DNA of 64,000 bases, taken from positions 13,279-77,278 of the forward strand of contig CASIAI010000001.1 in the NCBI GenBank assembly GCA_949372655.1. The letters run 5' to 3'. Each line of letters opens with the position of its first letter. The stretch's first letter is position 1. Origin of the DNA: Candidatus Poseidoniaceae archaeon. GTDB lineage: Archaea > Thermoplasmatota > Poseidoniia > Poseidoniales > Poseidoniaceae. Shown here piece after piece: positions 13,440 through 40,299 of this stretch. Made by a program: the position numbers and the translations under genes. The notes under the pieces are model-generated. The model was given only the letters and a program-made list of their open reading frames with translations. It did no database searches and was not told the DNA's origin.

Positions 13440-14345
13440 TTAATCCTCTCCTAATTGCTTCAAGGCTGATTCAACAGAGGTTGAACCTATCGCTAAATTA
13501 TGAAGGATTTCGTCTAGTTTATCAGATTCTAAAATTTTCCGTTCGTGGTGTGCAAGTAACCTTTCACGCCATTTGGCTTTCTTCGAACGACCTGTATCCT
13601 CAAGTTCCAGCAACACAGAAGATGCTTCTTCGATTCCCTCGCCCAATAATGCTGAAGTTAGAATTATTGGTGGCGTTTGACCCAAACCTAATTCGAAGGA
13701 TTCCTTAATCTCACCAGCATGTTGACTTGCCCCTGAAATATCGGATTTATTGACAATTACAGCATCTGCTAATTCTAGTAGACCGGCTTTTTCGGCTTGT
13801 ACTCCATCTCCACGAGCAGGCCCTTCAACCACTACAATTCTGTCGGTAATCGCTGCACACCTCACTTCTGATTGCCCAGAACCAACTGTTTCGATAATCA
13901 CTCTTTCCCAGCCGATTGCGCTAAGAAACTCAACCATATCTGACACAATTAAAGGAGCGCTACCAGAGGACTTCCTTGTTGCGATTGAACGAATATAAAT
14001 TAGGTCTTTGTATTGTTCATTATCAATTGCAGTAATTCTAACTCTATCGCCAAGCAGTGCGCCACCTGTGCGAGGCGAAGAAGGGTCAATAGCCAGTAAG
14101 GCTGTCTTAATTCCCTTTGAAGACCAATCGATTAGGATTTTATCAATCAAGCAAGATTTGCCAACCCCTGGAGCACCAGTAATAGCCAGTGACGACCAAG
14201 TGTCCTGAACTGAATCCGTGAATATTGAAGGAAACTCATCCTTGATATCACTCAAATTCAAGGTTCGATTTTCTAAAGAACTCAAAACTCTGGCAATAGA
14301 ACGTCTATCTCCTTGTATTGCATCGGTGACGAGTTGTAAATCCAA
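13440..14345 (-). CDS. meaB: Methylmalonyl-CoA mutase-associated G-protein (MeaB/ArgK)
   Basis: Walker A GAPGVGKS, LAIDPSSPRTGGALLGDRVR and VNKSD. Confidence 0.85.
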   Translation of the reverse strand: MDLQLVTDAIQGDRRSIARVLSSLENRTLNLSDIKDEFPSIFTDSVQDTWSSLAITGAPGVGKSCLIDKILIDWSSKGIKTALLAIDPSSPRTGGALLGDRVRITAIDNEQYKDLIYIRSIATRKSSGSAPLIVSDMVEFLSAIGWERVIIETVGSGQSEVRCAAITDRIVVVEGPARGDGVQAEKAGLLELADAVIVNKSDISGASQHAGEIKESFELGLGQTPPIILTSALLGEGIEEASSVLLELEDTGRSKKAKWRERLLAHHERKILESDKLDEILHNLAIGSTSVESALKQLGED

Positions 14346-24356: not shown

Positions 24357-24469
24357 TCGTAATCACCAAATCTCAGATTACAATTTCATTTCCTACACCT
24401 AAACCCTCGCAATATAGCGTTTTTTATAACAAATTAGCGTAATACACTGTAAGTCAATTCGTAATCACC
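24357..24469. promoter_or_regulatory. Two exact 11-nt direct repeats TCGTAATCACC (24357-24367, 24459-24469) plus a degenerate copy CGTAATACAC (about 24438), upstream of the RHH regulator gene
   Basis: Read directly from the 180-nt divergent intergenic region. Candidate operator sites. Confidence 0.3.
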
Positions 24470-24522
24470 TGTAATAAATACTATAAGGTATAGACATTTA
24501 GACAGGTTTGAGAGGAACCAAA

Positions 24523-24897
24523 ATGACTGCTCCAAGTACATTGATATCCCTTCGAATTACCGAAGAGGATTTACAATTACTAGATTCTAGAATTGGGACT
24601 GATGGTGCTCGAAGTCGATCTGATGTTGTTAGATTGGCAATTCAAGAATTCCTAAACGGCCAGCCTCTTCTTTCAGAGATGGATTCGGTTAGAATCCCAC
24701 TCGGCCGTGGCGACCAAATGCGGCTAGGACACTTGTATGAATTACAAGGAACTACAACTCAAGAAGCAGCCCAACAAGGATTGAAGCTGTTCATTCGACA
24801 AGCCTTAGAGAATGAAGTCGAAGAAACAAGAATGCTCGAGGAAGCTGTTGCGAAAGCACGTGCTTCTACGATTAAACGCGAAGAATACCAACAATAA
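24523..24897 (+). CDS. Ribbon-helix-helix (CopG/Arc-like) DNA-binding protein
   Basis: ISLRITEEDLQLLD...RSRSDVVRLAIQEFL fits a beta-strand/helix/helix RHH N-terminus. ATG 24523 is preceded by GAGAGGAACCAAA; the ORF track starts at TTG 24508. Confidence 0.55.
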   Translation: MTAPSTLISLRITEEDLQLLDSRIGTDGARSRSDVVRLAIQEFLNGQPLLSEMDSVRIPLGRGDQMRLGHLYELQGTTTQEAAQQGLKLFIRQALENEVEETRMLEEAVAKARASTIKREEYQQ

Positions 24898-24904
24898 TGG
24901 TGAG

Positions 24905-25210
24905 AGTGCAAGAGGGGATGGGATGATTAGGCATAACGACAAAGGAAACTTTCGTGATGCCACCTTCGGCGCTAGACAAGACAGGTCCAGTCTGTTTGGC
25001 TTAGCCGCTTTGCGTTTGCGTGCCCGTTTTGCACGTGATGGACCAGGTCCGGAATCTAATGATAACGGACCGAATTTCCCCCCGGAAGACGGACGGGGGG
25101 ACTCAGATTCCACCCCAGCTTGCTGAGTTGGTGGTTCCCACGTGCCTAGCCCCACTTACTAGGCACAATTATTCACATCAGTGCGGCCGCGCCCCCAATC
25201 CTTTAGAATG
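24905..25210 (+). ncRNA. GC-rich, highly structured RNA candidate of unknown class (about 300 nt)
   Basis: My hand count gives about 55% G+C over 24901-25200, against AT-rich flanks. Stems: GGCAU..AAAG-GAAA-CUUU..AUGCC (24930-24961), GCGUGC/GCACGU (25018-25036), CCCCCCG/CGGGGGG (25078-25100), CCACC..CAG-CUUG-CUG..GGUGG (25110-25134) and GUGCCUAG/CUAGGCAC (25142-25166). GAAA and CUUG tetraloops appear only in the + sense. The overlapping ORFs on both strands look like GC artefacts. Confidence 0.55.
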
Positions 25211-25230
25211 GTCGACTGTGGATTGATACT

Positions 25231-27291
25231 ATGAAGCCTCGAGCCGGTGTTGATGTCGAGAGTGATTTTCGCTTTCTGGCACATGAAACACCGAGGCCAG
25301 GTCAAATTGAGATGATTTATGAATGTCGAGAGGCTCTAAGGCAGAATGGCTATCATCTTGCCGCTGCACCAACTGGTATAGGTAAAACTGCAGCATCACT
25401 AGCGGCAGCGGTAGAAATATCGAGAACTTCAGAACAAAAAGTGCACATACTATTCCTTACTGGGAGGCAATCTCAACATCGGATAGTTATTGAAACTGTA
25501 AGACAAATTAATCTAAGACTTCAAGGAATTGAGTCAAATGTTAAGGTTGTTGATTTGATTGGAAGAGAATCAATGTGTGAATTAATTGACATGCAAACTG
25601 GAAAATGTGATTGTGAAAAAGGTTCCTCTGAAGGTTCTAAGTTCGCACGGCGAGACGAAATGAGCGACTATATCCTAGAACATCCACGCCATGTGGAAGA
25701 AACAATAGAAAAATGCAAGATATGGGGTCTTTGTGCTTGGTCTACCTGTAGATTTGCTGCCAAGGACTGTGATATCTTGGTATGTGACTATAATCACGTA
25801 TTTTCTGATAATGTCAGAGAAAATTCATTACCCTCGATGGGAATAAATATGGAGGATACAATTCTAATAGTCGATGAAGCACACAATTTACCTGATCGAA
25901 TCAGAATGAATATGGAACGAATCGTGACACCCACTATAGTGAGAAACACAACCATGGAATTAGAGGAATATCTCGGCCACTTAGAGATGGATTACCAAAG
26001 AAATACATCTACTGCAGTTGGTAAAGAAATGGAAATCGTGGATTGGACATTCGAAATTATGAAACTTGTGCGAAGTAAGATGGCAGACTTATTTTCTGCA
26101 CTACACTCGCAATTGGGTCATGATAAAGATGAATCGATGGTAGAGATATCTCAACTAGTCAATATATTTCATTCAGCATGTGATGAATATGAAGGTCTTT
26201 CTGGACAGAAAAAACTTGGTCAAGATGAAACTCAAGTGATTACTAAAGTAAACAAAGATGAAAGAATAAAGAAAATTAGTGAAGTTTTGAATCGTGTCAA
26301 AATAGAAATTGATTCCGAGGAAGACGAGGCGATGGAACCTGATGCTTATCGGCTTGGTCATATCCTTGAATGCCTTGTATTATTCACAAATAGCAGTGCT
26401 TTGAGTTTAGTATTTAGCAATAAAGGCAAAGAGGGAAAAATCACATCTCACCTGCTAGACCCTGGTATTGTTTCAGGAAAATTATTTTCTTCAGCAAAAG
26501 GTGCAATTTTAATGTCTGGTACTCTTTATCCACCACAAATGTACAGTGATATTCTTAATTTACCAAAAGAAAAAACTACTAAATCCGAGTATAAGTCTCC
26601 GTTCGCAAGTGAAAGAAGACCAGTACTAGTCGCTACCGATGTGTCTACAAAATACAATGAACGCTCTGAATTAATGTGGAATAAGATTAGGAGCCACATT
26701 CAAGCATTAATTGATGGAAGTAATGGCCATATTGCGGTTTTTTGTCCATCTTACCGCCTATTGGATGAGATATTGGAAGATGTTTATTTCAAAGGTGTAA
26801 AGAAAGTTGTTGAAAGTAGAGACTGGTCCAAGAATGATATCGATAAAATAGTTGGCATGCTACGCGATGAGCGCTCCAAAGAGAATCGTATCTTACTTTG
26901 TGGAGTATTCGGCGCAAGACTTTCTGAAGGAATCGATTATAGTGATGGAGTGCTTGATGGGGTTGTGTGTATTGGAATACCTAATCCTCCACCATCTGTA
27001 TTATCTTCGGCATTAAAAGAATATGCTTCCGATAAATTTGGAAAGAATAATGCATGGCGATATACAGTTACCCAACCGGCTATTAATTCAATTCTACAAG
27101 CGATGGGGCGTCCGATTAGATCGATAAACGATAGAGCACTAATCCTTCTGCTAGACAAACGAAATAGAGACCAGACCTATGCTAGATGCTATCCGGTTAA
27201 CATGAAGATGAATGCTACCAGTGAGCCTGATACTACCACTAGTTTCGCTAAAAGATTCTTTAGAAAAGTCAAACCTAATCAAAAAGAATAA
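25231..27291 (+). CDS. xpd: XPD/Rad3-family (DEAD_2) Fe-S DNA helicase
   Basis: AAPTGIGKT Walker A and VDEAHNL DEAH box. A Cys cluster lies between them (MCELIDMQTGKCDC...LCAWSTC), consistent with the XPD 4Fe-4S domain. C-terminal helicase motifs include QAMGRPIRS. Confidence 0.85.
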   Translation: MKPRAGVDVESDFRFLAHETPRPGQIEMIYECREALRQNGYHLAAAPTGIGKTAASLAAAVEISRTSEQKVHILFLTGRQSQHRIVIETVRQINLRLQGIESNVKVVDLIGRESMCELIDMQTGKCDCEKGSSEGSKFARRDEMSDYILEHPRHVEETIEKCKIWGLCAWSTCRFAAKDCDILVCDYNHVFSDNVRENSLPSMGINMEDTILIVDEAHNLPDRIRMNMERIVTPTIVRNTTMELEEYLGHLEMDYQRNTSTAVGKEMEIVDWTFEIMKLVRSKMADLFSALHSQLGHDKDESMVEISQLVNIFHSACDEYEGLSGQKKLGQDETQVITKVNKDERIKKISEVLNRVKIEIDSEEDEAMEPDAYRLGHILECLVLFTNSSALSLVFSNKGKEGKITSHLLDPGIVSGKLFSSAKGAILMSGTLYPPQMYSDILNLPKEKTTKSEYKSPFASERRPVLVATDVSTKYNERSELMWNKIRSHIQALIDGSNGHIAVFCPSYRLLDEILEDVYFKGVKKVVESRDWSKNDIDKIVGMLRDERSKENRILLCGVFGARLSEGIDYSDGVLDGVVCIGIPNPPPSVLSSALKEYASDKFGKNNAWRYTVTQPAINSILQAMGRPIRSINDRALILLLDKRNRDQTYARCYPVNMKMNATSEPDTTTSFAKRFFRKVKPNQKE

Positions 27292-27820: not shown

Positions 27821-30800
27821 TCATCTGTTTGGTATATTAGCAATCATTGCGATCTCTTGACTCATTCTTTCAAGCGCTTGTTGGGCAGCAGCCTGATGTT
27901 GAGGACCTAACTCTTCTCTGCTATACCTAGCCATTTCGAACATATTGTCAATCGCCGATAATGCATCGTCAGAAATCTCAGGCATTGCTTGTCTAATAGC
28001 AACTTCAAACTCTCTGACTGTTTCGAAATCTCTTCTCAGGAAGCCATTTTGTTGAAGTACCGTACATAGATTTTGATAGCAGTTGAATATGGTTTCACGA
28101 ATCGAGTCACCAGCAGCCAAAAGTTCAGCGGTATAAGCAAATACTTCAGCGGCCTCGTTTAGTAATTCATCAGCGATTCTTCGACGATAAACTACCACTC
28201 CACCAGCAATTAGAGCTGAGATCAATAAAACAACAAGATAAATCCATAAGGACTGACCAGATGCTTCGTCTATAGATTTATAACTAGGATCAAAACTACT
28301 CTCAGTACGTAATAATTCAAACTTCTCCTTACTGGTAGTAGATATAATTGGGTCCTTAATTTGAACATCTAGACTTAATTCACCATAAGTATCTTGATCT
28401 CCATATGGAGGGTCAGAATTGAATTCAAACGATGCAATACCATCTGAGTCAGTAGTAATTGTCAAAGGACTCGTTACTTCACCATTGGATGAATTGGTCA
28501 GAGTGAATGTTACAGCAATTCCTGGAACTCCTGCACCTGTATCATTTGCAGTTATTGTTAAACTTCCACTAATCTCTTCTCTTTCATCAGGAATAACTTG
28601 TTGCATATCAAATTCAAAGTCTACGTTCAACTGAACAAAAATCGGATGGCTAACTGTTGCTGCATTAATGTAAAGTGATTCATTACTTAATGTATCAAGA
28701 TGTAAGTATTGTGAACCATACTGGTACCATGAAGGTGCAATAGTAGAAATCGTGAAATTACCATTAGACCATTGGATATTGGTTAGGCTACTAGAAATAC
28801 ATCTCGCTCCTTCTCTTTGATTGACACAATCTGAACCATTTCCAATGAATATTGTTACAGTTTCAAAGACTTCACCAGTGCCACCAATCTCTGAAATCGA
28901 GCCTGTTAATTCTATTGGACCAAATGTTCCATCCGAACGAATGGCAATCGCAGTAGAAGATTGGTCTATTGATATCTCAACATTTGCCCAAACATATCCG
29001 AATACTGAATCATTGGTTCCCAAGTGGGAATTCGTCCCATCAAATATTACTTCAAAGGAATGAATACCTCTAGCTAAGTCCATAGTAGCAGGAATAATAA
29101 GTTCCCACTCTCCATTCTTATTGGTTGAAGAAGTTCCTATTTCCTCATCATCGAGAAGAACTCTAATTGTTTCACCTTCAAGACCTTCTTTAGTCAAAGA
29201 ATCAAAGTCAAACAATCTTCCAGATAGAACCCAGATTTCGCCCCTTGTAACCTCAGGTCCTTCATCAAATATTACTGTCAAATCTGAGCGATGTGCTAAG
29301 AAGAAAGTGATGTTACTACTATTTGCTCTATAGTATCCCTGAGATTCCGAGTAAGCAAATAAAGTATGGTTACCAAATTCAAAGATGTCCGGTACCGTCC
29401 ATTCGAACAAGAAGTTTCCATTCAAATCAGTAGTTACTGTGCTGATTACGATTCCGTCGATAATCAAATCTACACTGTGGTTGGAAACTGCTATCAACTG
29501 ATTATCGACAACTGTTCCAGTAATAGAAATATTCTGAGCAACTGCAATAGTTTGTGGCATATCGACTGTTACCAGTATATGACTAAATATATTCCAGGTG
29601 GAATTTGCATCACTGGGTAAGTAAAATGTAGTACCTGTAAATCTAACTTCGAGTGGCACTGGACCCAGTTCAGCATCAGCAGGAACAGGGTAAACAGCTG
29701 TAAAGAATCCTTCAGAATCGGTTTCCACATTTGTCATAAACTCTCCATCAAGCCATACTTCGACTGTCAAGTTTTCAAGAGGATTGTTAACAACATCAAC
29801 AAGCATTCCTTCTATGATCATTAATTCTTCACGATTAACATCTCCACTTTGAGTAAGTAGTGATATGACGGTTGGAACACTAATATTGAAATCAACAGTA
29901 TCTGAACTTGGTAGATAATATTCCGGATTGGATGGCTCACCAAATCCAACTGGATCTACCCAATCACGTCCACCATAGAATTCAACTACAATAGTGTGAA
30001 CACCTGCTGATATATCGTCTGGAACCGCCCATCCAATAGTGAAAGTTCCATTACTGGCATCTGTTTCTATACTCGCCACAGATACACCATCTACCACTAA
30101 GTGCACCACTGATGATGATGGAACTCCCATACTATTCAATGGCAATGACAAGTCATCAAGTAGAGTTCCATTCACTAACATATAATCCCCAGATACTAGA
30201 CCTTCAGGAGAATCAATGATTGTTAGGTTTGTTTGAGCAAGAACTACGAATGATGTATTGGTTTGAGAACCTATCATTCCAGTAGAGCCTGGTATTCCAG
30301 CAAATACTGCTTCAATAGCCATCGGACCAACTTCTTGGTCAGAAGGAACTTGAAGTTCCCCAAATGCACTACCATTAACTAAGGTAGTCAAAGTAGTAGT
30401 AATCGAAGTACCTATGAATGTGACTATCAATTGTTGACCCTCGACAGGAGAACCAGTATTATCTTGAAGTAATAATTCTATAGTTATGTTATTACCCCTT
30501 TCGGTTCTATCATTAAGAGTTGGTTGACCGAGTGAATCGATTGTTGGAACCATGAAAATAAGTTCACTAAAGCCCCTACTATCAAATTCACCAGTATCAT
30601 TCGAACCAAGATAGAAATTAACAGCAGGCGTGTAAGAAGCATCTATGACATGGGTTCCTGCAGCGAAAGAATTAGTCAAGGTAATTGTGGCATTCCAAGC
30701 ACCACCAATCTGAACTGCTCCACCAGAGACACTAAATCCGGTCGGTTGACCATCGATAGAGAATAAAATGTTAGCAGGAAGTACTGTACCATCTATCTGC

Positions 30801-33800
30801 TCCAATCCACTACCGTTGTCCGATAGAATATTTCCAGAAACATTGAATGATTGTCCTGCAACCGGATTATCAGTAATAGCGTCGACCAACAGGAACGTTT
30901 GAGAACGAACGATTATTGTTGAAATATTAGAGTTGGCTCCTAATAGGTCTGAACTTCCATTGAACCAGAAAGTCGCAGTTATCAAGCCCAATGGGTTTGA
31001 TGTCGGAATGGTATATGTTAAATCAAACAATCCTGTACCGTTGGTCTGTAGACTACCAATCCATGTTTCACCAAGTTGAATCGCCACATCATAGCCAGAA
31101 AGTGGCAAGAAACGATTAGACGCCTCAACCAATTGACCTGAGATATTTACATCGTCACCACGGTTGACAATTATTGGATTTAGAGGCTTCAATGAATCAA
31201 ATTCTGAGACTCCAAACACAAATATTGGTGTTTCAACTGATGATTCAAGATAGAAAGGTGAAGAATCTTCTACAACTGAGATGACTAATACTTTGTCTCC
31301 TCTAATCGTTCCATTATTCAAAACATCAGTAGGGACAGTCATATTGAATGAACCGTTTGTAGTGGTAGTATAACCTGAGATTAAAGTCTCATTAGGATTA
31401 CTTTCCCAAAATACTTCTAACTTGACTGGACTAATTAACAACCTCGAATTATCATCATCATCGATGACTTGTCCAATTACATTGAAATCTAGCCCAGCAG
31501 TGATTGAAGAAGGAATACTATCAATTCGGAAATCGGTATTACCTTGAACTGTTAAATTCATGATTGTAAAGTTGCCTAAGTGACGGGTACTTCCCTTAGC
31601 TAAAGGTGAAGTTACATTATCAGAAGCAACAACGCGAATGTCGTAGATACCTGGTGCAATTCCAAGTGCAGTCCATGAGAAATTAGCAACTCCGTCACCA
31701 TTACTTCTTGCTGTACCAATCGATTGATTGGTGCCATTCCAGTCGAAGATAAACTCAACATCCTCATTTGGAACAAATGAATTATCTGCAACGTCAGTAA
31801 CTAGTATGCTAAAGTTAAATTGTCCATTAGTAGTGACAATATTTTCACTTTCTCTATCGCTAACTACATTCAAAACTAATTCAGACTCGATTCCTGCTTC
31901 AATTGACGGTATAGGTTGTTGAGAAATATTACCTGTCGTGATATTCAAGAATGATTCTTCAGAAGAGTAGAATGGGCCACCAGCAGGCCCCAAAGAATAG
32001 AAATCAAAAGTAATTTGGAAATTATATACCGATGATGCGAATGTCGTAGGAATTAGAATTTGCTGACTAAAAGTGGATGTATTATTATCCACAAGACCTT
32101 GGGCAATATCGAAATTACCACCTGGAGAAATCATGGAAATGGAATATTGAGTTACATTTTGGTCTAATATTGGAGTTCCAAATACTCCATCAAAGATTGA
32201 ACCATTGATGAATGATGTATTACCTAAATGTGTCCAATCTTGAGCTAAAGTAAAAGTCCACCCGATTTCTGCTTTGATTCTAATCGTGTCTGAACTAACT
32301 GAAGGAGCATAGAAATCTGAACCATTAAAAGATACTTCCAATGTGTAATCACCTGCAACTAAATTAGCATCAAGGGGTAAAGAAGAGATTAATTTACCTG
32401 TAGAATTAGTAGTGGTATTGAACCAATTACTATTGAAACTTAAGTCAAAGTTACCTTCTACAAAGTCTACACTTACTCCCCGATGATCTGTTATCGATAC
32501 ACTAAATGTACCTAGTGAGCCTCGGATTTGAGGAGAGGTTTCAATGCTTAAATTAAGTGTACTAATCAGTAAATAGGGGTCATCAGAAGATAGGTTGGCA
32601 TCATCGGTTGTATCAATGGAATACGGGTAGAATCTTAATTGAAATTCAATTTCTCCGGCTGGAACATCTGCCAAAGATGCTGAAAGGTTCTCCCTTACGG
32701 AGAAGGAACCGTTTACAGTGGCATTGAATATTTGATTCCATGAATCGAAAGAACCATTTTCTCTTATAGAGAGAATTAAGTCACCCTCCATGTCTACAGG
32801 AGTGGTACCTGCAGAAACAGCACTACCATTCACCCAAAGATCTTCTCCCACAACATATCTACTATTATTAAAGGAAAGTCCTTCGATAGACGCCGTCAAA
32901 TTAGGAGCCTCTCTCACGTCTAAGTTTAGATTAAGAGATGATGGACGTATGTGGAATTGAGGAGTTGGGTTTGTAGGGATTGTAAAGTCATCAACCCATC
33001 CACCATACCACAGTGTCGCTGGAACAAGTCCTATTGACTCAGTTATGTCAAGTTCAAGAGTTACAGACCATGAACCACTTGGAGAAACTAAACCACTGAT
33101 ATTATTAGAACCATTAAACGATGAAGTAAAGGACAGCCATACCAACTGTGATTCAAATTTATCTGTTAATCCATTAGGGTCATTTTCAAGATTTAGATTA
33201 CCTTGGATAATGGTAAGTGAACCTGCACCTGCAATCGGTGTGTTTATTGCTAAAGGTACCGAATGTGAAAGATTTGAATCATCGGTCACATTGATGATAG
33301 TGGAGTAAATAATTGCATCATTAGAGATAAACCCACTTGATTGATGCATTATTGCAACTACATGCAAACCTGGTAGATTTGGCTCAATTGGTGAACCATT
33401 GAAAGAAAAGTTACCTTCCAAATCAGTAGTTGCAGTTCCAATTAGTCTAACAGGAGTGATTCCAGAACCGGGAACTGAACCAACATCTTCAACTGGAATT
33501 AAGTATGCCTTTAGTTCTGCATTTTCAATAATTGAAGTATTCTCAGTATATCTAAATTGACCATCTAAAGTGAAATTCTGGCTCATATCTCTATCCCAAG
33601 TCAACGGGGCTAATGTTTGATTAACAATCTCTAGTTCTTCCGCATCAGGACAAGAATCAAACGGAACCCAGCCTAAATCTAGGTTTGATGCCCCGCCTGT
33701 AAGTTCTAGTCTTACTTCACCCCAGGTTGCTCTATTCTGAGTTGAAACTGTATATCCATTACCATTCCATTCGCCACCAGAGTATCCTGTGACATACCTA

Positions 33801-36754
33801 GCTGGAAGTCCCGCTAGTCTAGCCATTGTTACGAATGCTGCATTATAATCAGAGCATTGACCATAACTATTTTCCATGATGAATTGGGCTATATCATCTC
33901 CAGGATTAATTCCTACAGATTGATGATACCTCTTGAAGTCAAAAGAATCGTTACCATCTTTCAAAAAGTCGCTCAAGGTCTTGGCTACATCATATCCACT
34001 GATAACTCCTGATTCAGAAATCACTTCATTGGTCACATTAAGAACGATAGATAGGGGGTCGTTAATATTAGTAAAATCAATCTTAAAATCTGATTCATAA
34101 GGATAATTTTGACCTGCTACTGTATTTGCTGCAATAGTATCCCAGTCAAGGAAATATTCATTTTGCTGTAGGAATAATGTGTCGATTACTCCACCATCAA
34201 GTCTGATGGTATGGGTGTCATTACTTCGAGAAACAAATGAAGAAGGGTCTGACCAAAATGATAGATTGTAATATTGTGAAGATATTGGTATTGTACCTCG
34301 TGAAATCGAGTTATTGAAATCTATTACCCAATCAACAGAACCATTAGAAAAACTTGAGTCTGGGAGGTGAGATAGATTGGTGACAGCAGGAACTAAGTCT
34401 TCATAAGGGTGAACAGTGCTTAGATGAGCATAGGTGGTACCTGTATAGAAATCAAAGGTATTTTGTGTCCAACGGTGTGTTTGGTCTAAATCAACTGTTC
34501 CTGATGAATTATTTGCCCAGAATACGACACCTTGTGAGATTATATCATCGGTTGGGTCGAGTGGGTCAAACCCTGAGCCAACACATGCTGTACCCCAGAA
34601 TTGTTGAGGGCATTCATCACCATCGATCATTCCCCCTCCATCGGTGTCCGGATTAGTCCAGTCGGTCCCAGTCAGGTTTTCGATAGCATCTGGAACCCCA
34701 TCACCATCAAAATCTTCGGGAAGAACATCGTCAAGAGGATTATTTTCAGGGTTGGTTCCATCGAAATATTCGGTTCTATCATCGACACCACCGCTATCTG
34801 TATCAAATAGCGAGGAATCAGTAGTCCATACGTCTTGAGAACCATTGAATACTCCAATCCATGATAGGTCACAACCGATGGTTGTCTCAAAATAATTATT
34901 CAAATTATCAGAGTCATCATCTAGTAAATTACTACATGGCTCATTTGGATCTGTAAAATCAAATACTTCATCAAAGTCACTAACTCCGTCAGCATCTGTG
35001 TCAACAATTGAAGGATTAGAGAAAAATCCATAGGTGCCTAACAGTTCTTCCCAGTCTGCCAAACCATCACCATCACTATCACGGTAATCGTCATCACAGT
35101 ACTGTTGGGTTGTACTTAATGTTCCGGCAGCAAAGGCAGCAGTATGACAAAATGAACCATTTCGATTCGAAACTTCTGTAACCCCAGGTGAAGGTAGAGA
35201 AGAAACTCCAACAAGTAATTGACCTACCACGCTTGCATAGGTGAACGATAGGAAGGCACCTGATGCATTATACCACCCAACTCCTCCACTTGGGTTGAAT
35301 CCAGAACTATCTGTCAAATCGAGAATACTTGTTCCACTTATACTAATAATAGTGGTCTCGAAATTAACAAAAGAGTCACAAGGGTCAGTACCATGAGTAA
35401 CATTTCGTTCTTCACCATCATCTACTCCGCCAAAATCAGAGTCCGCAACATCCCATAGAGTGCAAGACATGTTTTCTTCCCAATTTTGAAGGCCGTCTTC
35501 ATCTTCATCGCCTGAATCTTCCTTTCTTGTAGGATCGGTTTCTCCAGGATCGATTTGACCATTGCTGTTGTTATCTTCTTCCCCATCATCAAACTCATCA
35601 TCATCGGTATTATTATCACGTGGATCGGTTGGTTGAGGAGGGTTTCCATAAGCTCCATTGACTTCAACACCATCGCTAATTCCATCATTGTCGGTATCAG
35701 ATGCAGTTGGATCTGTAAGTAAAGTAAGCGCTTCATATGAATCATTCAGTCCATCATTATCACTATCTTTTCGTTGTGGATTAGTAGATGTAATTCCATC
35801 AACTTCAGCAGTAAAAGTCAAACAACCTTGTAACGGGTCACATGGGCTGGTTGTTTCAGTAACTGTACCATCAGGGCCGTTTCTAAAACAAGGGTTAGGA
35901 CCACACATAGTATCCCATGTAGGATTAACATATTCTAAGAGATTATTCAAACCATCTCCATCCGGGTCACCATTTGGACCATCGGCATTTGAAGCTGAAG
36001 TTGCGTTCAATCCATTAGCAGCTTCCCAACCATCTGGCATTCCATCGCCATCAGTATCCCAGCCTGCAACATCCTCATCGGCAATTCCATCTCCGTCATC
36101 GTCATCAGAATTACAATCTGCATCGCCATCTCCATCTGGATCAGCTGAATCAACTAACCCATCTTTATCATCATCAAATCCATTGGCACAGATATTCCCT
36201 ACTGGGTCTTCATCGCATAGAATTATGTTACCAGTACCATCTGAACCCGCAGCCCCACAGGCAGGCCTGTTGTATTGCATTGCATTTTCTTCATCCCAAT
36301 CATTTACTGGAACTGTTCCATTCCACCAAACTCCATTGTCGAGAATTGTGGATGTAGCACTATTATCCCATCCTGTTGGCATTAAGTAAGTATATTCTTG
36401 GAGATTGGACATTCCGTCACCATCTGGATCTCCAACCGCTCCATCGTCGTTGGCGCTGGATAAAGGATCAAGTCCGTATTTCCATTCCCAACCATCGGGG
36501 AGTCCATCATTATCAGAGTCTGGGTCGCTTGGTAATAGATTCAATAGAAATTCCAAACCATAAGTCAAACCATCTCCGTCTTGGTCTGTTGTTGAAGACG
36601 CTCTAACATCCAAAGATTCGAATTGAATGGAAGCAAAAACCGATAATAGCATTAAAGCGACTAGTGATAGTGATTTCAACTCTTTACGGTAATGTGAAAT
36701 TTGCAATTTTCGCCCCGGCTCGGAAGATAATGAAGGCATTCGCATGATACTCAT
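27821..36754 (-). CDS. Giant (2977 aa) surface protein: Ca-binding DxDxDG repeats, transglutaminase-like core, long Ig-like beta-domain array, TM anchor, DUF4129-like cytoplasmic tail
   Basis: N-terminal signal anchor LSLVALMLLSVFASIQF. More than 15 motifs such as DSDNDGLPDGWE and DPDGDGMSNLQE. GQCSDYNAAFVTMARLAGLPARYVTGY...GWVPFD is a transglutaminase-like core. About 1800 aa of repetitive beta-rich sequence follow. TM helix LWIYLVVLLISALIAGGVVVY. The tail ...FETVREFEVAIRQAMPEISDDALSAIDNMFEMARYS resembles DUF4129. Confidence 0.85.
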   Translation of the reverse strand: MSIMRMPSLSSEPGRKLQISHYRKELKSLSLVALMLLSVFASIQFESLDVRASSTTDQDGDGLTYGLEFLLNLLPSDPDSDNDGLPDGWEWKYGLDPLSSANDDGAVGDPDGDGMSNLQEYTYLMPTGWDNSATSTILDNGVWWNGTVPVNDWDEENAMQYNRPACGAAGSDGTGNIILCDEDPVGNICANGFDDDKDGLVDSADPDGDGDADCNSDDDDGDGIADEDVAGWDTDGDGMPDGWEAANGLNATSASNADGPNGDPDGDGLNNLLEYVNPTWDTMCGPNPCFRNGPDGTVTETTSPCDPLQGCLTFTAEVDGITSTNPQRKDSDNDGLNDSYEALTLLTDPTASDTDNDGISDGVEVNGAYGNPPQPTDPRDNNTDDDEFDDGEEDNNSNGQIDPGETDPTRKEDSGDEDEDGLQNWEENMSCTLWDVADSDFGGVDDGEERNVTHGTDPCDSFVNFETTIISISGTSILDLTDSSGFNPSGGVGWYNASGAFLSFTYASVVGQLLVGVSSLPSPGVTEVSNRNGSFCHTAAFAAGTLSTTQQYCDDDYRDSDGDGLADWEELLGTYGFFSNPSIVDTDADGVSDFDEVFDFTDPNEPCSNLLDDDSDNLNNYFETTIGCDLSWIGVFNGSQDVWTTDSSLFDTDSGGVDDRTEYFDGTNPENNPLDDVLPEDFDGDGVPDAIENLTGTDWTNPDTDGGGMIDGDECPQQFWGTACVGSGFDPLDPTDDIISQGVVFWANNSSGTVDLDQTHRWTQNTFDFYTGTTYAHLSTVHPYEDLVPAVTNLSHLPDSSFSNGSVDWVIDFNNSISRGTIPISSQYYNLSFWSDPSSFVSRSNDTHTIRLDGGVIDTLFLQQNEYFLDWDTIAANTVAGQNYPYESDFKIDFTNINDPLSIVLNVTNEVISESGVISGYDVAKTLSDFLKDGNDSFDFKRYHQSVGINPGDDIAQFIMENSYGQCSDYNAAFVTMARLAGLPARYVTGYSGGEWNGNGYTVSTQNRATWGEVRLELTGGASNLDLGWVPFDSCPDAEELEIVNQTLAPLTWDRDMSQNFTLDGQFRYTENTSIIENAELKAYLIPVEDVGSVPGSGITPVRLIGTATTDLEGNFSFNGSPIEPNLPGLHVVAIMHQSSGFISNDAIIYSTIINVTDDSNLSHSVPLAINTPIAGAGSLTIIQGNLNLENDPNGLTDKFESQLVWLSFTSSFNGSNNISGLVSPSGSWSVTLELDITESIGLVPATLWYGGWVDDFTIPTNPTPQFHIRPSSLNLNLDVREAPNLTASIEGLSFNNSRYVVGEDLWVNGSAVSAGTTPVDMEGDLILSIRENGSFDSWNQIFNATVNGSFSVRENLSASLADVPAGEIEFQLRFYPYSIDTTDDANLSSDDPYLLISTLNLSIETSPQIRGSLGTFSVSITDHRGVSVDFVEGNFDLSFNSNWFNTTTNSTGKLISSLPLDANLVAGDYTLEVSFNGSDFYAPSVSSDTIRIKAEIGWTFTLAQDWTHLGNTSFINGSIFDGVFGTPILDQNVTQYSISMISPGGNFDIAQGLVDNNTSTFSQQILIPTTFASSVYNFQITFDFYSLGPAGGPFYSSEESFLNITTGNISQQPIPSIEAGIESELVLNVVSDRESENIVTTNGQFNFSILVTDVADNSFVPNEDVEFIFDWNGTNQSIGTARSNGDGVANFSWTALGIAPGIYDIRVVASDNVTSPLAKGSTRHLGNFTIMNLTVQGNTDFRIDSIPSSITAGLDFNVIGQVIDDDDNSRLLISPVKLEVFWESNPNETLISGYTTTTNGSFNMTVPTDVLNNGTIRGDKVLVISVVEDSSPFYLESSVETPIFVFGVSEFDSLKPLNPIIVNRGDDVNISGQLVEASNRFLPLSGYDVAIQLGETWIGSLQTNGTGLFDLTYTIPTSNPLGLITATFWFNGSSDLLGANSNISTIIVRSQTFLLVDAITDNPVAGQSFNVSGNILSDNGSGLEQIDGTVLPANILFSIDGQPTGFSVSGGAVQIGGAWNATITLTNSFAAGTHVIDASYTPAVNFYLGSNDTGEFDSRGFSELIFMVPTIDSLGQPTLNDRTERGNNITIELLLQDNTGSPVEGQQLIVTFIGTSITTTLTTLVNGSAFGELQVPSDQEVGPMAIEAVFAGIPGSTGMIGSQTNTSFVVLAQTNLTIIDSPEGLVSGDYMLVNGTLLDDLSLPLNSMGVPSSSVVHLVVDGVSVASIETDASNGTFTIGWAVPDDISAGVHTIVVEFYGGRDWVDPVGFGEPSNPEYYLPSSDTVDFNISVPTVISLLTQSGDVNREELMIIEGMLVDVVNNPLENLTVEVWLDGEFMTNVETDSEGFFTAVYPVPADAELGPVPLEVRFTGTTFYLPSDANSTWNIFSHILVTVDMPQTIAVAQNISITGTVVDNQLIAVSNHSVDLIIDGIVISTVTTDLNGNFLFEWTVPDIFEFGNHTLFAYSESQGYYRANSSNITFFLAHRSDLTVIFDEGPEVTRGEIWVLSGRLFDFDSLTKEGLEGETIRVLLDDEEIGTSSTNKNGEWELIIPATMDLARGIHSFEVIFDGTNSHLGTNDSVFGYVWANVEISIDQSSTAIAIRSDGTFGPIELTGSISEIGGTGEVFETVTIFIGNGSDCVNQREGARCISSSLTNIQWSNGNFTISTIAPSWYQYGSQYLHLDTLSNESLYINAATVSHPIFVQLNVDFEFDMQQVIPDEREEISGSLTITANDTGAGVPGIAVTFTLTNSSNGEVTSPLTITTDSDGIASFEFNSDPPYGDQDTYGELSLDVQIKDPIISTTSKEKFELLRTESSFDPSYKSIDEASGQSLWIYLVVLLISALIAGGVVVYRRRIADELLNEAAEVFAYTAELLAAGDSIRETIFNCYQNLCTVLQQNGFLRRDFETVREFEVAIRQAMPEISDDALSAIDNMFEMARYSREELGPQHQAAAQQALERMSQEIAMIANIPNR
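33645..33865 (-). other. Transglutaminase-like core segment of the giant protein
   Basis: The Cys in GQCSDY and the Asp in GWVPFD are present. The position usually occupied by HAW reads ATW (NRATWGEV), so the catalytic His may be absent. Confidence 0.6.
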
Positions 36755-40215: not shown

Positions 40216-40299
40216 TGCAGGGAGTGGGATACGAACCCACGAACCCATATGGGACCGGATCTTAAGCCCGGCGCCTTTGACCACCTCAGCCATCCCTGC
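40216..40299 (-). tRNA. tRNA-Leu (anticodon UAA), type II with long variable arm, no encoded CCA
   Basis: The reverse complement reads GCAGGGA-UG-GCUGAGGUGGUCAAAGGC-G-CCGGG-CUUAAGA-UCCGG-UCCCAUAUGGGUUC-GUGGG-UUCGUAU-CCCAC-UCCCUGC-A. The 7-bp acceptor, 5-bp anticodon and 5-bp T stems all pair. 84 nt. Confidence 0.9.

Follow-up and report, generated by a model that had tools for sequence, protein, structure and literature searches.

The dual-function RNAs SgrS/SgrT, RNAIII/hld and SR1/SR1P are bacterial, base-pair with target mRNAs, and keep their open reading frame (ORF) and their regulatory part largely separate. The mRNAs of hok/sok-type type I toxins are folded over ~300-400 nt around an ORF of ~50 codons, have a Shine-Dalgarno (SD) sequence that is occluded by distant segments, and encode a membrane toxin. 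Here we describe a small ORF with overlapping RNA hairpins that bears comparison with both, from the Poseidoniales (marine group II, MG-II), which are uncultured and among the most abundant archaea of the surface ocean; to our knowledge, their regulatory RNAs and small proteins are virtually uncharacterized. The element lies in a 64,000-nt stretch of a Candidatus Poseidoniaceae archaeon genome (contig CASIAI010000001.1; the whole stretch is referred to below as the window), between a gene for an RHH protein, whose stop codon is at 24895-24897, and a gene for an XPD-type helicase, whose ATG is at 25231.

The stretch between these genes is GC-rich, with a G+C content of 0.553 over 24901-25200 compared to 0.400 for the whole window and ~0.39 in the flanks. 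An original prediction, made by a model from the letters of the window, had placed the boundaries and the jump to ~55% G+C correctly and had suggested an unclassified structured RNA, which agrees with the conserved + strand multi-hairpin structure that we observed and that no Rfam family matches. We found that a coding frame and the conserved + strand hairpins overlap in the same 270 nt. The reading frame is under selection, and hairpins H1 to H3 and H5 to H7 are selected separately, at the level of the + strand RNA. We give a probability of roughly 0.55 to the interpretation that this is a translated small ORF within a cis-acting structured mRNA. The elements of the frame are as follows.

Positions 24899-24906, + strand: GGTGAGAG, an SD-like block right after the RHH stop codon, almost invariant in all clades.
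Positions 24912-24919, + strand: GAGGGGAT, the SD sequence of the small ORF, invariant.
Positions 24923 (ATG) to 25126 (TGA), + strand: the small ORF, 67 aa plus stop, MIRHNDKGNFRDATFGARQDRSSLFGLAALRLRARFARDGPGPESNDNGPNFPPEDGRGDSDSTPAC, with an open frame, in-frame indels and codon periodicity.

Relatives of the XPD gene, found by searching a genome collection, were all Poseidoniales or Poseidoniaceae (MG-II) metagenome-assembled genomes (MAGs). We gathered 82 related loci by means of RHH homologues, the protein of the small ORF and a scan of metagenomes, and the order RHH, small-ORF element, XPD was found in every one with enough flanking sequence. The intergenic stretch is 90-94% identical among close relatives and still 71-73% identical over ~330 nt at loci whose XPD proteins share only 59-64% identity. 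In a sliding profile, diversity falls from ~0.3-0.4 to 0.12-0.19 from ~24870 onward, and the constrained zone thus defined (~24870-25213) is less diverse than both flanking genes. The locus is single-copy, syntenic and vertically inherited across an order, and neither the small-ORF peptide nor the SD block was found in the viral contigs searched.

The small-ORF frame is open in all 54 distinct homologues, as well as in five more divergent loci, while an open frame survived in only 9% of shuffles. Four of the other frames are open in at most one of the 54 homologues (0-1/54), and the fifth, the antisense ORF at 24805-25155, is open in 44 and was rejected as not conserved because it contains stops in the remaining 10. 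Homologous ORFs have six lengths (180, 186, 189, 198, 201 and 204 nt; 60-68 aa in relatives), all of them in frame. The flanking spacers, in contrast, do not change in threes and vary by 1, 2, 7, 12 and 13 nt: the distance from the stop codon to a downstream CCTTTAG ranges over 73-91 nt with nine lengths, and the spacer between the invariant block GAGGGGATGG (24912-24921) and the ATG varies from 1 to 4 nt in single-nucleotide steps. About a dozen independent length changes inside the ORF all keep the frame, which cannot reasonably be put down to chance. The start codon of one locus, L077, is shifted by two codons with the frame retained. This locus lies on a short metagenome contig that terminates (~856-875) in CTGTCTCTTATACACATCT, which we take to be an Illumina Nextera adapter; the contig end would then be an assembly artefact, and this may explain the odd C-terminus of protein P0146.

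Diversity at the three codon positions is 0.25, 0.20 and 0.32 (permutation p=0.004), a pattern that persists in columns outside the helices and is absent from the downstream non-coding part. The sequence GAGGGGAT fits the SD motif GAGGTGAT found before many genes of the window. A 301-aa P-loop (GAPGVGKS) gene on the - strand (13440-14345) begins with a TTG that follows GAGGTGAGAG by six bases, right behind the stop codon of the preceding gene, indicating that the GGTGAGAG octamer serves as an SD sequence in this genome. An upstream six-codon frame (GTG 24905 to TGA 24925, GTG CAA GAG GGG ATG GGA TGA) was rejected, as the frame is not retained between clades. It ends in an ATGA that overlaps the start of the small ORF, and some gene calls in other clades fuse the two.

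The overlapping ORFs of this region had been regarded as by-products of GC-rich non-coding sequence. For the + strand frame at 24923-25126, this view is not supported, in light of the SD sequence, the open frame in 54 of 54 homologues, the in-frame indels and the periodicity. A 104-aa ORF in the mechanical list that accompanied the original prediction is the same frame extended backward into RHH. Gene callers annotate a 60-67 aa ORF here in other assemblies, inconsistently, as a hypothetical protein, and the 27 clusters of the small-ORF protein in the protein database are all labeled "hypothetical". A HMMER search of 1.84 billion representatives yielded no more than 20 clusters, of which P0132, a spurious tandem-repeat protein, is the sole one outside this family, and no family was found in Pfam or NCBIfam with the peptide as query. 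The family is narrow. The peptide includes the segments DATFGAR, SSLFGLAALR and DGPGPESNDNGPNFPPEDGR, which have clade variants.

The hairpins that overlap and follow this frame are listed below.

Positions 24930-24961, + strand: H1, with a base of GGCAU/AUGCC plus CGA/UCG and a variable apex; 5 of 8 pairs change on both sides.
Positions 24972-24999, + strand: H2, 24972-79 paired with 24992-99; 6 of 8 pairs are double-changed and 93.6% of cells pair.
Positions 25018-25036, + strand: H3, GCGUGC/GCACGU, encoding the RLRARxA helix; 98.3% of cells pair and one pair is double-changed.
Positions 25046-25071, + strand: H4, a variable hairpin GGUCCG...CGGACC that includes CCAGGUCCGGAA, which resembles signal recognition particle (SRP) RNA; a clade-specific in-frame insertion, absent or replaced in most clades.
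Positions 25078-25100, + strand: H5, CCCCCCG/CGGGGGG; 100% of cells pair.
Positions 25106-25134, + strand: the GAUUCCAC block and H6 (CCA/UGG, CCAGC/GUUGG), whose loop or 3' strand holds the stop codon (UGA 25124-26).
Positions 25142-25166, + strand: H7, in the 3' untranslated part; the stem varies freely and the loop CCCCAC(W)U is conserved.
Positions 25181-25192, + strand: H8, a small GC hairpin GUGC GGCC GCGC; weak, with 2 of 4 pairs double-changed and a register that differs between clades.

We tested the seven local helices other than the clade-specific H4 (50 pairs) in 51 distinct aligned sequences, using as controls the same helices with their 3' partners slid by 1-3 columns, which keeps composition and phylogeny, and 500 shuffles. 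The pairing cells amounted to 91.9%, compared to 33-43% in the slid controls. Changes on both sides were seen in 23 of the 50 pairs (4-13 when slid) and in 130 cells (12-48 when slid), and none of the 500 shuffles reached the observed values for pairing or double changes. The covariation in homologous regions of relatives that had been named as a check on the proposed RNA is thus present above slid controls. G·U pairs outnumber A·C in the tested pairs by 160 to 63, which points to the + strand as the folded one. Folding z-scores against dinucleotide shuffles were -4.17 for the full 333 nt and -4.59 for 273 nt (24898-25170) on the + strand, compared to -1.60 on the - strand. Three homologues scored -3.41, -2.80 and -1.04 on the + strand, so that three of the four sequences folded, the window and two homologues, are more stable than shuffles.

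All five stems listed by the original prediction exist in the window, and those at 25018-25036, 25078-25100 and 25142-25166, along with the base of H1, are conserved with covariation. Two of the five needed correction. In H1 only the basal GGCAU/AUGCC and CGA/UCG are conserved, changing for example to GGGAG/CUCCC in L010, while the GAAA-capped apex is specific to the clade of the window. The hairpin at 25110-25134 is real, though not in the CUUG tetraloop register that had been proposed: covariation backs CCAGC 25115-19 with GUUGG 25127-31 around a 7-nt loop, UUGCUGA, which includes the stop codon. H2 had not been noticed. All deletions in the H4 hairpin are multiples of 3. In H5, independent clades (L014, L078-L082) have replaced C-G with U-A at several positions despite the resulting peptide change (PP...RGD to SL...QGG, among others). 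In H6, synonymous changes in Pro codons covary with non-coding bases past the stop codon, giving A-U, G-C, U-A and C-G pairs. The H7 stem is wholly rewritten in L010, L078, L079, L080 and L082 with the loop retained, and the most divergent loci keep H5, H6 and H7 with different sequences. At the site of H8, other clades have NCAG...CUGN' and an adjoining insertion of 7-13 nt.

The C/A-rich motif CCCCAC(A) recurs in single-stranded positions before H7 and in its loop (25135-25156), and before H5 in several clades (L014, L029, L080). We observed no enrichment of CCCCACW elsewhere in the window (4 matches, 9.8 expected).

Synonymous sites of the small ORF were unusually constrained. Between the window and L006, pS was 0.31 in the small ORF, compared to 0.69 in RHH and 0.81 in XPD, at an equal pN of 0.25-0.26, and synonymous divergence was lower in the small ORF in all 13 pairs tested. 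Third-position diversity is 0.32 in the small ORF and 0.52 and 0.61 in the neighboring genes RHH and XPD, and the G+C content at third codon positions (GC3) is 0.46, compared to 0.29-0.30 in the neighbors. In this gene, the RNA appears to be constrained about as strongly as the protein.

At its 3' end, the constrained zone runs into a further conserved element.

Positions 25197-25215, + strand: AATCCTTTAGAATGGTCGA, a candidate core promoter of XPD with transcription factor B recognition element and TATA box (TTTAGA 25202-25207), nearly invariant.

The sequence AATCCTTTAGA(R)(R)GGTCGAC is almost invariant and lies 23 nt ahead of the XPD ATG, a spacing that is fixed. No SD sequence occurs between this box and the ATG, which is preceded by T. 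A TATA box at such a fixed distance without an SD sequence is the layout of a leaderless archaeal mRNA, and the most likely role of AATCCTTTAGA is that of a promoter for a leaderless XPD mRNA. TTTAGA is also found at -30 of one other ORF in the window. A helix that would close the structure by joining its 5' and 3' ends had been suggested; it received no covariation support, and distant clades have lost the C-run. RNAalifold proposes a GAGG/CCUU(U) pairing, but we rejected the closing helix of the SD region with CCCCCAAUCCUUU, since neither side varies and its 3' arm falls on the probable TATA box of XPD.

How the structure might act can be outlined as follows. The small ORF would probably be the second cistron after RHH, separated from it by a gap of 25 nt and led by its own SD sequence; inspection of the alignment revealed no evident promoter for it in the RHH 3' end, and an internal candidate in GAAGAATACC has no convincing TATA box or spacing. 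We infer that the structure works in cis, on the messenger that contains it. The SD/AUG segment GAGGGGAUGGGAUG, which is invariant, could pair with CCUUC at 24963-67, with AUUCCA at 25107-12 or with CCUUU at 25200-04, and translation initiation would probably be gated by whichever pairing forms.

Positions 24963-24967, + strand: CCUUC, a pyrimidine block and inferred candidate anti-SD (complement of GAGGG).

The CCUUC block can pair with the SD sequence in 100% of the 51 sequences, compared to 60-80% when slid; as neither side varies, this pairing shows no covariation. The C-run of H5 pairs with an SD-like G-run, which would create an anti-SD/anti-anti-SD arrangement. A ribosome reading the ORF would have to melt H1 to H6, the stop-codon hairpin among them. 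H7, with its free stem, its fixed CCCCAC loop and a second CCCAC just upstream, may be a recognition element or a 3'-end or stability element, and it would separate the small-ORF transcript from the leaderless XPD promoter at 25197-25215.

Several observations weigh against a translated ORF in a cis-acting mRNA. Co-transcription with RHH and the XPD promoter are predictions from sequence. A TTTAGA at -26 of RHH, which we had considered as support for the TATA assignment, lies where the alignment shows no conservation. The partner that would sequester the SD sequence is ambiguous, as all candidates are invariant and lack covariation support, and the fold of one homologue is no more stable than those of shuffles (z=-1.04). 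The peptide motifs with the highest conservation (AALRLRARLA and RGDSDSTP) overlie helices H3, H5 and H6, so part of the apparent protein conservation may be RNA conservation, and the compensatory changes in L014 and L078-L082 preserve H5 yet alter the peptide. The dN/dS ratio of the small ORF ranges from 0.18 to 0.82 across pairs, reaching 0.8 in some, because dS is lowered by the RNA constraint. Finally, the AlphaFold model, computed from a 13-sequence alignment, is of low confidence (pLDDT 56.6), with a single helix at residues 24-38 (LRLRARxAR) and low confidence elsewhere. The peptide as modeled would be one basic amphipathic helix between disordered ends, charged and hydrophilic.

Among the alternatives, the leading one is primarily a stand-alone stable structured RNA of ~230-270 nt (24899 to ~25130-25170) that acts in trans or forms part of a ribonucleoprotein (RNP), the ORF being a second function or merely tolerated. 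We consider this possible rather than probable. Synonymous sites and unpaired blocks (GGUGAGAG, GACUCNGAUUCCAC, UUCCCAC and the CCCCAC loop) are constrained beyond what hairpin stability needs, pairing is retained at the expense of amino-acid changes, and the peptide is predicted to be mostly disordered. Moreover, MG-II cells make abundant unclassified RNA: Tan1, an unclassified non-coding RNA of 229 nt from MG-II "Thalassoarchaea", ranked 5th in RNA-seq, and 13 "disordered-protein mRNAs" account for 93% of MG-II reads (PMC5069720). The RNA described here may be identical to, or a relative of, one of the abundant unclassified MG-II RNAs, for example Tan1. However, the frame-preserving indels, the moved in-frame start, the invariant SD sequence at SD-like spacing and the periodicity would be unexpected if the RNA were untranslated, and the RHH 3' end holds no evident promoter from which it could be made.

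A combination of both functions can also be envisaged, which we regard as speculative and rather improbable: an archaeal dual-function RNA, stable, structured, ~230-270 nt long and conserved across Poseidoniales, possibly one of the very abundant unclassified MG-II transcripts, that would act as a sensor, scaffold or trans-regulator and would also encode an Arg-rich peptide that binds the CCCCAC elements, forming with the RHH protein a self-regulating RNP module beside XPD.

It is unlikely that the stretch is instead the 5' leader of the XPD mRNA, in which the hairpins and the upstream ORF would control the helicase by attenuation or by coupling of the upstream-ORF type. The element directly precedes XPD in all cases, in the same orientation, and with no obvious oligo-T terminator after H7, read-through from the RHH promoter is possible. 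The almost invariant AATCCTTTAGA box at its fixed distance and the lack of an SD sequence point instead to a leaderless mRNA with its own promoter, which makes the long structured helicase leader considered by the original prediction unlikely. In addition, the spacer from the small-ORF stop codon to the TATA-like box varies (73-91 nt), and in L079 XPD begins ~260 nt after the small ORF with a different intervening sequence. This L079 spacer (680-938) is AT-rich and contains GTACA/GTCAAT/GCATTAC boxes resembling those upstream of RHH.

Even less probable is an ordinary small protein gene whose hairpins and low synonymous rate are side effects of GC-rich, biased codons, with no RNA function. The evidence for the ORF fits this explanation, GC-rich sequence readily forms stems, and one homologue has a folding z-score of only -1.04. 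Nevertheless, compensatory double changes lie far above slid controls that preserve composition and phylogeny, synonymous Pro-codon changes in H6 covary with non-coding bases past the stop codon, and H7 covaries although it lies outside the ORF. The GC3 of 0.46, compared to 0.29-0.30 in the neighbors, also has no expression-bias explanation.

We scanned for known RNA families at several levels. At gathering thresholds, the 4227 covariance models (CMs) of Rfam 15 matched only a tRNA-Leu (anticodon TAA, long variable arm; 40216-40299, - strand) in the whole window, which was also the sole ARAGORN match in the 64 kb. At E<=10, no relevant match was found in 24700-25400, the nearest being CRISPR-DR35 (E=3.6) on the - strand within XPD, which is noise, and at E<=1 no match was found in nine homologous loci from different clades. 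The Rfam scan that had been put forward as a check thus returned no family for the region or for these nine loci. The archaeal SRP RNA (RF01857) gave no CM match, and the region has no AGCA-containing helix 8 with a GNAR tetraloop; a search confirmed that AGCA is absent from its + strand, as had been stated. Nor did archaeal RNase P RNA (RF00373/RF02357) give a CM match or the region contain signatures of conserved regions CR-I to CR-V. The absence of SRP and RNase P hallmarks is thereby upheld, and the motifs reported earlier are where they were said to be (GCGGCCGC at 25183, CACGTG at 25032 and 25139, and CCAGGTCCGGAA at 25043). In MG-II metatranscriptomics, Rfam finds ordinary RNase P RNA (292-306 nt, RF00373) and SRP RNA (305-315 nt, RF01857) (PMC5069720). 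A very divergent SRP RNA, RNase P RNA or other Rfam family member, as the original prediction had also entertained, is hardly credible, as it would have in its favor only the size (~300 nt), the G+C content and the 12-nt match of CCAGGUCCGGAA to the 5' side of SRP helix 8, which belongs to a clade-specific insertion that most relatives lack, and since both MG-II RNAs are recognized by Rfam elsewhere, this region is neither.

The neighboring genes are consistent in all loci.

Positions 24523-24897, + strand: RHH gene (CopG/Arc/MetJ-type), 124 aa, Pfam RHH_1; the upstream partner in every locus.
Positions 24880-24894, + strand: the final RHH codons, GAAGAATACCAACAA, with synonymous sites nearly invariant in all clades but one in the alignment.
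Positions 25231-27291, + strand: XPD/Rad3-type helicase gene, 686 aa, Pfam DEAD_2, Helicase_C_2 and HBB; the downstream neighbor in every locus.

The near-invariance of synonymous sites in GAAGAATACCAACAA indicates that nucleotide-level constraint starts inside RHH; the constraint over 24880-24894 could be due to the RNA structure, if it extends this far, or to an internal promoter. RHH homologues form 103 clusters of 124 aa, and all source names that bear an organism are a marine euryarchaeote or a Poseidoniales MAG. All of the 124-aa homologues place the true RHH start at ATG 24523 rather than at the TTG 24508 of the mechanical ORF list, and an SD-like stretch, GAGAGGAA, precedes this ATG. 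A weak match of the RHH protein to aCcr1, a family of archaeal cell-cycle regulators, stays below threshold (E=0.0019; 18 bits, cut-off 60). Upstream of RHH, TGTAAT, CGTAAT, TGTAAG and TGTCAT-CA boxes are repeated at 24430-24480 and conserved across clades, followed by a conserved TATA-like CTATAAG/GATATAC ~40 nt before the ATG; together, these are probably the RHH operator and promoter. On the other side of the locus, a giant 2977-aa protein (27821-36754, - strand) stays beside it in relatives, and the Pfam matches of its homologues include a transglutaminase core and TSP3-type repeats.

The locus offers a testable, sharply defined, order-wide, single-copy small gene, flanked by RHH, a putative regulator, and by a helicase of DNA repair. 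Since neither Pfam nor NCBIfam nor Rfam holds a family for the small ORF, there is room for a new protein model as well as a new RNA motif. It also carries two lessons: a GC-rich island in an AT-rich genome need not be a non-coding RNA, and a "low-complexity" ORF translation need not mean a spurious ORF.

When compared to described systems, the locus shares with archaeal SRP RNA (RF01857) and RNase P RNA (RF00373) a size of ~300 nt, a G+C content above the genome average and many hairpins, and differs from them in lacking a CM match and the helix-8 or CR-I to CR-V signatures. It resembles Tan1, as described, in being an unclassified structured MG-II RNA of a few hundred nt (Hou et al. 2016, PMC5069720), absent from Rfam as judged by the present scans. 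Like cis-regulators that sequester an SD sequence, such as RNA thermometers and riboswitch platforms, it has an invariant SD/AUG opposite invariant pyrimidine blocks, and the G-run of H5 mimics an SD sequence. Unlike them, it matches no known aptamer or thermometer family, and its structure runs through and past the coding region instead of lying in the 5' untranslated region.

The similarity to hok/sok mRNAs lies in a highly folded mRNA with a small ORF, an overlapping upstream frame, strong covariation and complementary segments facing the SD sequence. The peptide, however, is hydrophilic and charged with one basic helix, and the locus is single-copy, syntenic and absent from viral contigs; no hok-like antisense RNA gene was seen at the locus, although no search was aimed at antisense RNA. 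With the dual-function small RNAs SgrS/SgrT, RNAIII/hld and SR1/SR1P, it shares a transcript of a few hundred nt that combines a small ORF with separately selected RNA structure, while here the helices lie inside the ORF, the host is archaeal, and neither the sequences nor the families are related. RNAs that code and also carry functional structure are a known kind, to which the present locus adds one that is unrelated to any described family, archaeal, and order-wide.

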